Shown piece after piece: positions 51,206 through 59,200 of a DNA stretch of 59,841 bases; position 1 is the stretch's first letter; every line of letters begins with the position of its first letter. The translations under genes were made by a program, and so were the position numbers. The notes under the pieces were generated by a model. That model did no database searches and was not told where the DNA came from. It worked only from the letters and a program-made list of their open reading frames with translations. Source of the stretch: Candidatus Microgenomates bacterium (lineage in GTDB: Bacteria > Patescibacteriota > Microgenomatia > JACQLA01); the NCBI GenBank assembly GCA_016204255.1, contig JACQLA010000003.1:250088-309928 (forward strand), read 5' to 3'.

Positions 51206-51235
51206 CGCCCCGATTTCATCGGGGCTAGAAATTTG

Positions 51236-53380: not shown

Positions 53381-53657
53381 CTCATTCCTCAAAATTGAGC
53401 AATTTTTTTCTTCGACAATCAGGAAGTAGCAGGAAAGTTCCAGATTTTTTAGGAGATTCTGGAGAAACTCCGGTGTTGGTTTCCTCCTCCGACAAAAATC
53501 GGGGGGAACCGTGAATACTCCTAGAAAGGAGGTGATCCATCCTCAGCTTCGGCTAAGGATACCTTGTTACGACTTAGCGCTCATCGCCGACCTTGGCTTA
53601 ACTCCGATTAAATCGGAGCTTCGGCCACTGCCGACTTTGCTCACTTGACGGGCGGTG

Positions 53658-54621
53658 TTCTGAGATAGCGCGTTACAACCATCTAAACGCTTCTCACCCA
53701 CGGAGCACACGGTTTTCCCGTACTCTCGCGGACGGCTATCCAAACATTGGCCTTCTATTATTCATAAATTCCCTGATTTTCAAAAGTTGGTCTATACCTT
53801 TCTCAGTAAGATGGTCTTTTTTCCTGAAAATCTCTGCTGCCTGGCAGAAAAGTTCAAAGTCCTTTCCCTTCTTACCTTTTAAGGGAAATTTCTTAAAGAA
53901 CGGAATAACCTTATGAAGAATATCGCCTTGTTTCCTAACGACAAACTTTACGTGAGGTTTCCATCCATATCTATCATAATTCAGTTCTACTATTCTTCCA
54001 CAGTCAAGCCTTTTTTGAATTAACTCCAAAATTGGTTTATCGTCTGCCCGAAGCTCAATTTCAAAACAAAGATTTGCATCCCTACCTGTTTTCTTTGTTT
54101 TATGCTTCGTTATCAGAATAGCAAAACATCCTTCCCCATCGGTAAAACCAACAATATACCACGGACTTAAAAACTTGTATGCACTCATGTTTGGTTAGCT
54201 TCGATCCTTCACCCCGATTAAATCGGGACTACTATGATCTCTGCAGACTTCCAGTATTTACTCGGTGTCAGTTCACACTGACACTTACTTCCATTGTTGA
54301 TTAACAACAAATAAAAGTCAATACTGGATCTCCCTTTGTAGCCATATTTTCCATCTATTATCATCTTGAGCCCAATTACCTAATTAGCTGTATTTAGTAA
54401 ATGGCTTCCCTATTTGTACGAAAGGTCGCCAACTGATTAGGCCGTCTCGACTTCAAGCTAATAACTGTTACTTTAGCCCTTCTCGCTCCAACATTACTGC
54501 AGGAGGATGCTATTTCGCTTTAAGAGCGTTACTTACTCTTAGAAGGATTTCCCGCTTCGACTTCGTCGAAGACGAGGCGAGTCACCTTCTGGAAAAAATG
54601 GCCGAAAGGCGCAATTTATTT
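53658..54621 (-). mobile_element. Group II-like intron (964 nt) at about E. coli 16S position 1396, with a LAGLIDADG ORF in domain IV
   Basis: Splits CTTGTACA|CACCGCC. TTGCGCC near the 5' end; GAAGTCTGCAGAGATCATAGTAG..GAAGGATCGAA domain III-like motif; CGC-triad domain V-like hairpin; domain VI-like stem with a bulged A. Confidence 0.8.
53736..54188 (-). CDS. Single-motif LAGLIDADG homing endonuclease
   Basis: WYIVGFTDGEGCF motif; VIPFFKKFPLKGKKGKDFELF tail. Confidence 0.95.
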   Translation of the reverse strand: MSAYKFLSPWYIVGFTDGEGCFAILITKHKTKKTGRDANLCFEIELRADDKPILELIQKRLDCGRIVELNYDRYGWKPHVKFVVRKQGDILHKVIPFFKKFPLKGKKGKDFELFCQAAEIFRKKDHLTEKGIDQLLKIREFMNNRRPMFG

Positions 54622-55074
54622 TGTACAAGACCCGAGAACGTATTCACCGCGGCCTGCTGATCCGCGATTACTAGCAATTCCGCGTTCATGGGGGCGGGTT
54701 TCAGCCCCCAATTCCAACTGAGGCGAAATTTTAGAGATTAGCATACCGTTGCCGGTTAGCCACTCGTTGTTATTCGCCATTGTAGTGTGTGTGTAGCCCA
54801 GGGCATAAGGGACGTGCTGACTTGACGTCGTCCCCGCCTTCCTCCCCCGATTTAATCGGGGGCAGTTCCCTTTGAAAAAATTTAACAAAGGGTGAGGGTT
54901 GCGCTCGTTATGGCACTTAAGCCTACACCTCACGGTACGAGCTGACGACAGCCATGCATCACCTGTTCTACCTTCCTTGCGGATCGTCCCGCTTTTCGGC
55001 GGAACTAAAACGGTAAAATGTCAAGCCCTGGTGAGGTTCTTCGCTTCGTCTCGAATTGAACCACACGCTCCACT

Positions 55075-55136
<62 letters not shown>

Positions 55137-56208
55137 CTCGCTTAACGGGTTACCTTACGACACTCAAGTAAACTCGAGTATCTAGCGAGCATCGTTTACG
55201 GCTAGGACTACGCAGGTCTCTAATCTGCTTCGCTACCCTAGCTTTCGTGCCTCAGCGTCAAAATTTGGCTAGAGGTCTGCCTTCGCTTTTGGTGTTCTTT
55301 CCGATATCAACGCATTTCACTGCTACACCGGAAATTCCAACCTCTCCACCAATTTTCAAGTCAGACAGTATCACACCCTTTTCTCTGATTAAGTCGGAGT
55401 CTTTAAGGTATGACTTACCTGACCGCCTACGCACTCTTTACGCCCAGTAAATCCGGATAATGCTTGCACCCTACGTATTACCGAGGCTTCTGGCACGTAG
55501 TTAGCAGGTGCTTATTCATCCCGACATACGTCGGAATAAAAGAGGTTTACAACCCGAAGGCCTTCATCCCTCACGCGGCGTCGCTGCGTCAGGCTTTCGC
55601 CCATTGCGCAATATTCCCGGTTGCTGCCACCCGTAGGTGTATGGACCGTATCTCAGTTCCATTCTGGGGGGTCGTGCTCTCACACCCCCTACCCGTCATA
55701 GGTTTGGTGAGCTATTACCTCACCAACTGCCTGATAGGACGCAGGCCACTCCCGAGGTGGGAAGTTAAGCCCTTTACTCCCCCGATTAAATCGGAGGAGA
55801 CCATGAGGGATTACCCCGTCTTTCGACGAGCTATACCTCTCCTCGGGGCATGTTCCTACGCGTTACTCAGCCGTCTGCCACTGATTTGGCTTGCGCCAAA
55901 CCCGTTCGACTTGCATACCTAAGGCACGCCGCCAGCATTCATCCTGAGCCAGGATCAAACTCTCAAAAAATGCCCGTCTCGACTGTCTTGCAACAGTAAG
56001 ACGAGGCGGATATTCCTGCTACATCCTGACTATCGAAAATTTAAAAAGTGATGTTTGCTTATTAAGTTTTAAAGGTGCTTATGATGCTGGACAAAGAAAA
56101 ACCCCGCCAAGCGGGGCCTTATTTCGTTATCCACTTGGGCAAAAATCACATCATCATAAATTTAAAATTCTTTTCTGCGCCAATTAAAAACCAACGCATT
56201 GCATATAT

Positions 56209-56237
56209 ATGATACAAAATTGCGGGTTCTTTGTCAA
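56209..56237 (-). promoter_or_regulatory. rrs sigma70 promoter
   Basis: TTGACA-17-TATCAT, about 240 nt upstream of the mature 16S. Confidence 0.8.
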
Positions 56238-56253
56238 TGACCAGCTGGTCTTT

Positions 56254-59200
56254 TTACGGCGCAACTTCTTCCCAAGTAATATCATCAGGATAAATATTTT
56301 TAGGCGCATTCATGATATAGCTCGGATTATAAGTAAAAATTTCTGCTGGATCATTAATATTGTCTAATTTTCTTTGAAGATTAAATCCGCCATGGGCAAC
56401 AAAGACACCGTTACCTTCTAACTGCTCGTCCGACCCGTCCGTGCCGGTAGAAATCTGTCCATCAGCCACATAAATTCCATCGATAGACTCAACTTCCTCA
56501 TCAATAATAATGTTGCCATTGCTGGGGCTTGTCTTTTTGACAAAGAAAGTAAAAGATCCATCCTGGGGAATTTTTATTCTGTCTGCAGAAAGGCCGGGAC
56601 CGATCTTTAAGTTGGCGCCATCAACAAAGATTAGAAATCGTTTTTTACCGGAAATTACCCAATTTCCGCTTAAGGTTAAATCGCCTTTTGTTGCTCCGTC
56701 CCAATATAAAATTTTCTCGCAATCCGTTCCTCCACCACTAGCCCCACCGGGGCTACATCCAATCGGACCATTACCGGAAGCCAACGCTTCTGTGGGTTTT
56801 ACCATGTTATAAAAATAGTCATAATTATACTTTACTCCACTGGAATAACGGTCATAGGAATAACCATTGGGAGGTGAACTGTTTTGATCGAGTAACCAGC
56901 CGGTCGAAGAAACATCCCCGGGATTAAAGGTAGCGGAACCGTTGGCAGAAACTACACCGGGATAATTATTTACAGGTAAAGAGAAGTTTTCCGAAGTAGG
57001 AGTCATCGCGCTTAAAGAACCTTGCACATGGACGTCTCCCCCGGCGGTCTGAAACCAGGAGCCCATTGTTCTGACAAAGAAATTATTGCTACTGGGTGCA
57101 GATACCGCATTAACTGTTCCCTTGCAACCAGGTTGACAGCCAGCGCAAACCCAATTATCAGGTAAAGAAGTTAAAGTTGTGACCGAATCTTTATAAAGCC
57201 AAAGGCTGTGAAGTCCTGAGGTCGGATTATCAAATAGAAAAGCCGAGTTGTTGGCATTATTAAATGGGTCCAGTTTTTCACCCGCCGTCATTGGGTCTAA
57301 TTTTGCTACAGCGGTGCTCCAGACCCCGCCTCCACCAACCGGAGACGCAGTAGCGACATTACAGGTATTATTCGGATCATTATAAACATTACCCTGAATC
57401 GACGGATTAATACATGTAAGAGACATTGCTACTTTAGTACCAGTGAGCACATTAGTGAGCTGCTCCCATGTTCCGGTTTGAGGATCCCTGGCTTCAACCT
57501 TAATGGAATGACTTACTCCGGTACTAATTAAACCCCAAAGATTTATATTAAAAGAGCAGTTGCCGCCCGTACACAAACCGGGAAGAGCGGTAAGATTAGC
57601 TCTGTATGTGCTGGCTATTCCCTCCGCCACTTTCACCCCGTCGGAAAAAACCCTGATATTCAACCGGGTATTTGGATTATCACGATCCGAAGCCCAACCC
57701 ATAGCCCGGCATTCGGTTGATCCCCGAATTGGCGGACTGGAATCACCCTCATGAAAACCTTCCGGCAGATTGCCGATGACCGAAAGAGTGTATGTGCTGC
57801 CACATTGCCAGGAAACTTGCTCGACATAAAAACGGAATTGATAGGTACCGACTTGGTCGACTGGCACCTGCCATTGAAAAACTCGCTGGGTGTAATTCCG
57901 AGGCCAACCTCCAACTACCACTGTTGTCGGCCGGTCAAAAGTAGCGCTAGGCCTCCCATAAGAGACCCGGGCTCCGGAAGGTGTATTGGCTCCTAAGTAA
58001 ACCGGTCTGGCCACTTGGGTTGCCCAAGGTCCCGAATTTTGATCATAGGCTTTGTAAGAAGCCATTTCCACTGTGACTGTAGTACCAACAGCTGCCGGAT
58101 TCGGACTGATAGACAGCCCTCCGCCCCCCCACTGCGCAGTAGTATCACCACAAATACAATATTTAACGTCGTACCGCTCAAAATCCCAATCACCACTCCA
58201 CTCACCGGTGCAACCACCACCAAATTTGTTTACCCAGTCACAATCATTGATATGCTGTTGGATTTCGTCTTTCCCGGGGCCATAACTTTGCTGTTCCCAA
58301 TTGGGGCCGCAGCCAAAATTCCCTCCCTCTGATTTACTTAGTTCATATGTTTCCAGCATGGTAGCCGGCTGATCACTCCAAATACCCGTGCCATATTTGC
58401 ATTCAACGCAAGACATCGGCCCCCCATCGCCTACACAATTTTTCGGATCCCACATACAAACGTTACTTGCGTTTACAAAACATTGAGAAGATGGTTGACA
58501 GCTAAAGGTGGCGCCATCAGAACAAAGGCTTTTATTGGGATCACCACCACAACCCCCGGCACAACTCCCGCAGGGCTGATCTGAACCGGGAGTAGGTGTT
58601 ACCGTAGATGTTGGCGTCGGGGGTGGCTCGCTACACCCCATACAACCGCCTGAACCACAGTCATTATATAAGTAGTCCCAAGTTCCCCCAGCGTTGCATT
58701 GCCAAACTTCCCGCTCGCACTGCCCGGGATAAGATACTTGGTCACAAGACCTTGTGGTGCACCTTGTATCATAGCTTCCCGGTAAACAACCGCCCCCGGA
58801 AAGAGGAGTAGGGGTTGGAGTAAAAGTGGGGGTGGGCGGCGGCCCGGGAGGATTTAGGCGGATCGTAAAATCTCTTGATTGGCCGTTGCAAATGGTGTTT
58901 GAATCACCACCAGGCTGTGGGGGTAATCTTCTAAAGCCGCTCTCGGTTCCAAGGGTCACATTAATATCATACGTCTTCGAACAGTTTAATCTGTGTATTC
59001 CAACGACCCGGCCGAAAGAATCAGCATCGTAGGTCCAAGAGTAAGTTCCATCTTTAAATGGCGTCTGACCACCGTCGGGTGAAGAAAAAACAACGCTCGC
59101 TCCCGAAGCTGGCGACCCATCCGACCTTTCGATTGTCAGGTTACCGATCATCGCCCCGATATTATTGATTTCTTTAACGTTGGGAGGGATAATGGTCACG

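Follow-up and report, generated by a model that had tools for sequence, protein, structure and literature searches.

How does a bacterium with a single 16S rRNA gene make ribosomes when that gene is interrupted next to the decoding centre? The question is raised by a 59,841-nt stretch of DNA (the window) from Candidatus Microgenomates bacterium, a member of the candidate phyla radiation (CPR; GenBank assembly GCA_016204255.1, contig JACQLA010000003.1, positions 250,088 to 309,928 of the forward strand), whose 16S rRNA gene carries an insert of 964 nt. We found that this insert is a genuine group II intron and not a group I intron. Very probably it is a mobile one, with a class C-like ribozyme and with a LAGLIDADG homing endonuclease (LHE) in domain IV that replaces the reverse transcriptase (RT)/maturase, in the sole 16S rRNA gene of a small CPR genome. 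Covariation establishes the fold and the contacts of the ribozyme, from which splicing itself may be deduced.

The interrupted 16S rRNA gene and its insert

The assembly comprises 0.71 Mb in 8 contigs and is 81% complete. Its single 16S rRNA gene lies on the minus strand of the window, from approximately position 55970 down to 53527, and the insert adjoins the decoding centre. In the register of the initial annotation (53658-54621), which had been made from the letters of the DNA, the gene breaks off after ...CUUGUACA (which ends at 54622) and resumes with CACCGCCCGUC (from 53657), and the insert begins with AAAUAAAUUGCGCC and terminates in ...GCUAUCUCAGAA. Read in the RNA sense, ...GGUGAAUACGUUCUCGGGUCUUGUACA is followed by AAAUAAAUUGCGCCUUUCGG... 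at the 5' break and, 964 nt further on, ...GCGCUAUCUCAGAA is followed by CACCGCCCGUCAAG at the 3' break. We take this break to be A1396/C1397, assuming the 1392-1406 numbering of the 1392R primer site. Since an A is repeated at the junction, a break at C1395/A1396 is equally possible.

The Rfam model for group II domains 1 to 4 (RF01998) matched the insert at 54204-54287 on the minus strand with 53.5 bits, against a cut-off of 35 bits, and was the best member of its clan for this sequence. No group I covariance model matched at E ≤ 1 in the scanned interval 53400-56300. This comparison of models, which the initial annotation had itself proposed as a check, upholds its assignment of the insert to group II.

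A separate observation concerns gene calling. The Rfam bacterial small-subunit (SSU) rRNA model places the 16S rRNA gene at 54539-55970 (model positions 1-1533), where the gene occupies 53527-55970 in the window; in this call the model's 3' end is forced onto part of the intron, and the true 3' exon of 132 nt is lost.

Conserved core and exon contacts in 31 related introns

A DNA search across the phylum (401 genomes) returned homologous introns in three other genomes, and a locus search returned 80 loci. From these loci, those of the DNA search and the window, 31 distinct inserts were obtained that lie between GUAC and ACCGCCCG in 16S rRNA, and all 31 homologous introns are located at 16S 1395-1398. 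RF01998 matched 26 of the 401 genomes, nearly always once per genome and once in the source genome; the further matches that were examined lay at this 16S site in 9 of 9 cases. The distribution of the intron is patchy, because no sampled genome of the same class has it. The features of the window copy, with exon-binding site 1 (EBS1), intron-binding site 1 (IBS1) and the junction between domains II and III (J2/3), are as follows.

53659..54622, minus strand: whole intron, 964 nt (sequence; EBS1 register and domain VI geometry)
54623..54628, minus strand: IBS1, the last six bases of the 5' exon, 16S 1390-1395, UUGUAC (unbiased helix search)
54615..54622, minus strand: 5'-terminal linker AAAAUAAA, from the splice site to UUGCG (alignment)
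54610..54614, minus strand: UUGCG, counterpart of the GUGYG 5' motif, with the GCG part conserved (alignment of the 31 introns)
54288..54609, minus strand: rest of domain I (alignment; coordinates)
54414..54419, minus strand: EBS1, GUACAA, in the loop of hairpin 54405-54427 (covaries with the exon and the splice register)
54258..54287, minus strand: domain II, a hairpin with GUGA as its loop (RF01998 match, first helix)
54245, minus strand: gamma nucleotide U in J2/3, GUC-U-GC (gamma-gamma' across the 31 introns)
54203..54239, minus strand: domain III, GAUCAUAGUA...GAAGGAUC, capped by a CCGAUUUAAUCGG hairpin (RF01998 alignment; repeat count)
53735..54199, minus strand: domain IV, stem GCUAACC/GGAUAGC around the endonuclease reading frame (read from the sequence; also forms in locus L003, as CUAACC/GGUUAG)
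53736..54188, minus strand: gene for a single-motif LHE of 150 aa (Pfam PF00961)
53698..53731, minus strand: domain V with CGC triad, extra bulged A (53726), GU bulge and GAAAA loop (covariation)
53662..53695, minus strand: domain VI; its bulged A at 53666 (position -8) is the candidate branch point (covariation)
53659..53661, minus strand: 3' tail AGA, whose last A (53659) is gamma' (alignment and covariation)
53527..53658, minus strand: 3' exon of 16S rRNA, from A1396 to the GGAUCACCUCCUU end (sequence; the Rfam 16S match does not span the intron)

The 31 introns fall into three types.

Type A, 14 introns including the window copy: linker A-rich, 6-9 nt, followed by UUGCG or AUGCG; tail N-G/U-A; J2/3 GUC-U-GC; splicing at 1395/1396 (favoured)
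Type B, 12 introns: AAAUAA, then AUGCGCCUGG; tail AAU or GAU before CACC; J2/3 GUC-A-GC; splicing at 1396/1397
Type C, 5 introns: no linker, exon GUACAC and then, for example, UUGCG or UGGCG; tail, for example, GAU or GGA before ACCG; gamma A or U, matching the last base; splicing at 1397/1398

The evidence for a ribozyme comes from compensatory changes among these introns. J2/3 with the gamma nucleotide, domain V, the base of domain VI and the 3' tail were stitched into one alignment of the 31 introns, with type B given an N at the column of the extra A. Pairs formed in 98.9% of the 620 cells, and both sides had changed in 15 of the 20 pairs. None of 500 shuffles reached these values of pairing and double change, and sliding the partners by 1-3 columns lowered pairing to 31-41%.

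Domain V, which MAFFT alone had already aligned column for column, reads CCGCG-A-GAGU / ACGG-GAAAA-CCGU / GU / GCUC-CGUGG in the window. Its lower helix has 9 bp and its upper helix 4 bp, with a 2-nt bulge between them and a pentaloop at the tip; the GU bulge directly follows the upper helix in the 3' strand, and the middle G of the CGC triad sits in a G-U pair. Across the 31 introns its pairs were formed in 13 of 13 cases, with double changes in 8. The additional A that bulges from the 5' strand of the lower helix is present in all type A and type C introns (19/19) and absent from type B; apart from this, domain V varies less than any other part of group II introns. The initial annotation had recognized the CGC triad and the enlarged loop, which is the 5-nt GAAAA; the bulge is GU and not TG as it stated, and it had missed the bulged A. 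Folding of the 3' region alone by minimum free energy gave another register for domain V, which was rejected on comparative grounds.

Domain VI is made up of a 4-bp base (GAGA/UCUC), the bulged A53666, further pairs and the 3-nt tail. The base, the bulged A and two further pairs are found in 31 of 31 introns, and all six pairs covary. The gamma-gamma' contact, between J2/3 and the last base of the intron, is U-A in the 16 of 16 introns that end in A and A-U in the 15 of 15 that end in U, without exception. Since gamma matches the last base in 31/31 introns, the missing AY terminus represents a swapped gamma-gamma' pair and not decay.

Contact with the 5' exon was examined by an unbiased search for the best helix that the EBS1 loop region can form with the 15 nt surrounding the 5' junction. 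In the window, the loop of hairpin 54405-54427 reads C-GUACAA-AU. In type A, UUGUAC is bound by GUACAA/G, with C1395 as the last paired base in 14 of 14 introns; type B introns pair UGUAC(A) with (U)GUACA, with the helix ending at A1396 in 11 of 12; in type C, the partners are GUGUAC or GUGUGC in the loop and GUACAC or GCACAC in the exon, and C1397 is the last base of the helix. Across the lineages EBS1 thus takes the forms GUACAA, UGUAC, GUGUAC, GUGUGC and GAGUAC, and exon and EBS1 change together in the combinations GCACAC/GUGUGC, GUACUC/GAGUAC and GCACA/UGUGU. The 16S rRNA of four loci (L036, L093, L096 and L097) reads GUACUC instead of GUACAC and so has U at position 1396; the EBS1 of the L036 intron carries the matching change, GAGUAC.

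Because the EBS1-IBS1 helix ends at C1395 and the geometry of domain VI is uniform, we favour the intron boundaries 54622..53659, GUAC|AAAAUAAA-UUGCG...CUCAGA|ACACC, at 16S 1395/1396. Only with this boundary for type A do all 31 introns share a 3-nt tail and a bulged A at -8. The coordinates and end sequences given in the initial annotation were right. Its register, GUACA|CACC, is equally compatible with the bare sequence, but EBS1 and domain VI favour GUAC|A...AGA|ACACC, one base upstream.

The linker between this splice site and UUGCG is 6-9 nt long and A-rich in 14/14 type A introns, where it is almost without G, measures 6 nt in 12/12 type B introns and is absent from the 5 type C introns, which often start with U. 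No columns of domains I-III were complementary to it in ≥70% of type A or type B introns. A match of AAAUAAA with UUUAUUU in the window was considered as a pairing of the linker and discarded, as it is not conserved. The linker most plausibly serves as a single-stranded spacer that separates the splice site held by EBS1 from the GCG motif. The non-canonical ends that had been noted at the outset are present, in the form of the 8-nt linker and the terminal A; they are not peculiar to this copy and are conserved, compensated traits of the lineage. Together the three types form a graded series, with splicing after 1395, 1396 and 1397, linkers of 8, 6 and 0 nt, and a re-matched EBS1 and gamma-gamma' pair.

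Some further observations were made on individual introns. A 31-nt insertion, CUCGCCUCGUCUUCGACGAAGUCGAAGCGGG, with a CGUC-UUC-GACG hairpin occupies the loop of the first domain I hairpin (54551-54581, minus strand) and occurs only in the window copy and in L012 among the 31 introns. Locus L004 (G235:C21) is otherwise closely related to L003, but at ~1410-1500 on its minus strand the domain II region is enlarged by ~100 nt of additional sequence that forms hairpins of its own; RF01998 matches its genome, G235, three times, each on another contig. The 13-nt palindrome CCGAUUUAAUCGG was found with at most one mismatch at 5 places in the window, versus 0.13 expected (51210-51222, 53604-53616, 54214-54226, 54847-54859 and 55782-55794); 4 of the 5 copies cap helices of 16S rRNA or of intron domain III, and the domain III loops of L004, L014, L021 and L022, from other genomes, carry similar CCGAU-N-AUCGG caps. 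Three introns at the same 16S site (L093, L098 and L101) are minimal versions of 397-488 nt that have no open reading frame (ORF). Several loci are titled 'uncultured Gammaproteobacteria bacterium', and these organism labels look wrong. In L012 and L013, the intron ends and the 16S flanks are near-identical to those of Daviesbacteria-type loci, and the endonucleases are ~91-92% identical to that of the window.

Endonuclease, proposed splicing and rival explanations

The sole long ORF of the intron (53736-54188, minus strand) encodes a single LAGLIDADG_1 domain (PF00961, 1.6e-23), and its stop codon sits inside the 3' strand of the domain IV stem. The best PDB matches of the protein belong to the I-OnuI family (the two halves of I-OnuI-type enzymes). 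A protein search returned 199 homologues with E ≤ 1e-10. The closest relatives of the endonuclease are in Daviesbacteria and Levyibacteriota metagenome-assembled genomes, which marks the host as a bacterium of CPR/Microgenomates type. The motif YIVGFTDGEG retains an acidic residue, and G18-E19-G20 is invariant in 13 sequences. Judged by sequence comparison, the gene is under purifying selection, with pN/pS of 0.10-0.14 versus five relatives. The ligated target is pseudo-palindromic, with the best centre at 1394|1395 (7 of 11 positions), one base from the insertion point, and would suit an endonuclease homodimer. Cleavage has been demonstrated for I-ShaI, the enzyme of a CPR 23S rRNA intron, not for that of the window (Tsurumaki 2024, PMC11270868).

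No RVT_1 (reverse transcriptase) or GIIM (maturase) domain was detected in the 81%-complete genome, which argues against a maturase acting in trans and, together with the PF00961 match, bears out the initial reading of an RT-less intron with a LAGLIDADG nuclease. The genome has a single 16S copy, so precise removal of the intron is required; the same annotation had correctly stated that removal must be precise and had added that it must be achieved without a cis-encoded maturase.

We propose the following course of splicing and spread. The intron would be transcribed as part of the pre-16S rRNA. Its EBS1 loop (GUACAA) would pair with 16S 1390-1395 and set the 5' splice site after C1395, 8 nt upstream of UUGCG, with the A-rich linker as an unpaired spacer. 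The CGC triad of domain V would provide the catalytic centre, domain VI would position the bulged A 8 nt from the 3' end, and the last intron base, A, would pair with the U in J2/3. Ligation of the exons would restore GUACACACCGCCCGUC, the predicted junction being GUACACACC, i.e., ...CUUGUAC-ACACCGCCCGUC. A dimer of the endonuclease would cut intron-less 16S rDNA (CGGGTCTTGTACACACCGCCCG) at the pseudo-palindrome centred at 1394|1395, after which repair of the double-strand break would copy the intron into the site, as the enzyme family suggests. Retrohoming would not be possible without an RT.

For the first splicing step, we estimate an about even chance of hydrolysis, a somewhat smaller chance of branching at A53666 and a small chance of another route, such as circle formation. 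The first intron base is A rather than G. The initial annotation had favoured an atypical, hydrolytic route. This is not supported as stated, since a bulged A at -8 lies within a covarying helix in 31/31 introns; hydrolytic splicing is not established because this branch-site A has been kept, unlike in other 5'-shifted introns, and the choice between hydrolysis and branching stays close.

Several observations weigh against reading the insert as a mobile, class C-like group II intron. The model for domains V and VI (RF00029) did not match in the intron at E ≤ 1. The only RF00029 match in the genome (E = 6.7, at another place on the contig) was dismissed as noise. At the 5' splice site there is no GUGYG, UUGCG standing 8 nt inside the intron, and the 3' end is ...AGA instead of the AY consensus. 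EBS3 was sought in the intron alignment and was not located. A column that would fit IBS3, reading U in type A and type C and G in type B, is not claimed for it, because it lies between domains Ib and Ic and is confounded with lineage. The domain VI helix is partly circular evidence, because its 5' strand was picked by complementarity, in a search within 8 offsets, while its 3' strand and the bulged A were set by the distance from the splice site. The context of class C introns, downstream of a terminator or attC stem-loop and with a class C RT, is not that of the window, where the site is in 16S rRNA and an RT is lacking. RF01998 is taken here to be a class C model, which the literature did not confirm. 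The class C assignment rests on this attribution and on Liu 2026.

Some of these points would also fit a decayed relic of a ribozyme, with removal carried out by host factors or by the LAGLIDADG protein acting as a maturase. Such a relic would explain why G1 and the 3' AY are missing, why RF00029 finds no match and why there is no cis-encoded maturase, and some LAGLIDADG proteins of group I introns do act as maturases. We nevertheless consider it improbable: the catalytic core and the tertiary contacts are conserved with covariation, and the endonuclease protein is not generally required, because ORF-less versions of 397-488 nt persist at the site. The LAGLIDADG protein of a Leptographium group II intron, moreover, gave no aid to splicing (Zimmerly and Semper 2015).

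Marginally less probable still is excision as an intervening sequence whose flanks are not rejoined, so that the ribosome would use a 16S rRNA fragmented at 1395/1396, comparable to RNase III-processed 23S intervening sequences. Fragmented rRNAs do exist in bacteria, and some CPR inserts may be of this kind (Tsurumaki 2024, PMC11270868). The break would, however, hit the decoding centre, and the insert has no long bracketing helix as an RNase III site needs. Domain V, domain VI, gamma-gamma' and EBS1-IBS1 have been kept by compensatory changes in 31 introns, and these elements matter only for splicing by a ribozyme that positions its exons. A group I intron with a LAGLIDADG gene, suggested by the facts that such genes are typical of group I and that most CPR rRNA introns are group I (Tsurumaki 2024, PMC11270868), is so unlikely as to be set aside, given the silence of the group I models, an RF01998 score over the cut-off and the presence of domains V and VI, gamma-gamma' and EBS1.

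Relation to known introns

The mobile group II intron supported by this evidence belongs to a known kind. Tsurumaki 2024 (J Bacteriol, PMC11270868) described 53 group II-like inserts in CPR bacteria, all at one 16S site, 16IS9 ("position 1400"), with a LAGLIDADG_1 ORF in 39 of the 53, none in 14 and an RT in none. The window copy shares with them the host group, the rRNA site, detection by Rfam group II models, a single-domain LAGLIDADG_1 protein and the lack of an RT, and is a further example of 16IS9. That study placed its sites by comparison with E. coli only, without analysis of splice sites, EBS or domains.

A second description concerns rns-1396 (S1396), which Liu 2026 (PMC13190283) presents as a group IIC-LHE family of Thiomargarita and a few CPR bacteria; the Thiomargarita intron was, according to later papers, first described by Salman et al. 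2012. Liu 2026 assigns the backbone of the family to IIC and reports that domain IV encodes a single-motif LHE, that EBS2 is lacking and that all members have a 5' terminal linker, so that the 5' linker had already been published for rns-1396. Zimmerly and Semper 2015 calls the family IIB1, where Liu 2026 says IIC. Among the rows of Table S4 of Liu 2026 (PMC13190283) that were consulted, EBS1 contains GUGUAC and the exons are GUACA|CACC.

The window copy resembles rns-1396 in its alignable ribozyme backbone, its single-motif LHE in domain IV, its 5' linker and its 16S neighbourhood. The match to the family is found in type B (12 loci, e.g., L029-L034), which has EBS1 ..GUGUAC.. and the junction GUACA|...AAU|CACC. 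The window copy differs in its GUAC|A site, its EBS1 GUACAA, an end in GA rather than AU, a gamma U, a linker of 8 versus 6 nt, and a domain V with an extra bulged A and a GAAAA loop. Neither CGUACA nor GUACAAAU, both of them spanning the EBS1 of the window copy, occurs in the supplementary file of Liu 2026 that holds Table S4 (PMC13190283). The window intron is thus a sister sub-lineage of the rns-1396/16IS9 family that splices one base upstream. Most of its unusual-looking features have already been published for the family, and its sub-lineage is not catalogued at this resolution. The element is real and well supported; it adds one more copy to a known type, within a sub-lineage that is modestly distinct.

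Introns of class IIC such as O.i.I1 and B.h.I1 resemble the window copy in their CGC triad, compact domains I-III and short EBS1, and RF01998 is its best match for domains 1 to 4. Class C is further marked by the lack of an EBS2 and by a reduced domain I. Unlike the window intron, class IIC introns carry an RT gene and target sites that follow terminator or attC stem-loops. Their domain V is presumably 32 nt long, versus 34 nt with a pentaloop here. Although their branch point is normal, IIC introns use hydrolysis in vitro (PMC4748821).

Displaced 5' splice sites have been described elsewhere. Fungal mitochondrial IIB1 introns in rRNA genes carry 5'-terminal inserts, many of them together with LAGLIDADG ORFs (Toor and Zimmerly 2002; Li et al. 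2011). The 5' splice site lies 1-33 nt upstream of GUGYG in the fungal introns and 8 nt upstream in C.te.I1 of Clostridium tetani (McNeil and Zimmerly 2014, PMC4024640). These introns have in common with the window copy an upstream site defined by EBS1-IBS1, the loss of the RT and rRNA hosts. In contrast, they belong to another subclass, with an AGC instead of a CGC triad, and they have lost the branch-site A, with domain VI shortened, and splice by hydrolysis, whereas the lineage of the window keeps the bulged A at -8 and its helix in 31/31 introns.

For this organism, the sole 16S rRNA gene is split at the decoding centre, and every ribosome needs accurate removal of the intron without a maturase of the intron's own. 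Automatic annotation with standard rRNA models would truncate the gene at the intron, and primers of the 1392R type span the junction, so that amplicon surveys would miss or mis-size such organisms. For the biology of group II introns, the value of the finding lies in the series of three registers with matched changes in EBS1 and gamma-gamma', and in a linker that coexists with a conserved branch site, a combination that offers a cheap and concrete test of whether a 5' extension forces hydrolytic splicing. We suggest, tentatively and as the less likely outcome, that the lineage is a natural 5'-extended group II intron that still branches, breaking the published association of a 5' shift with a lost branch site, with its sisters forming a graded series. 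If this is true, the series of lineages would show a DNA-homing group II ribozyme that has been retargeted base by base.

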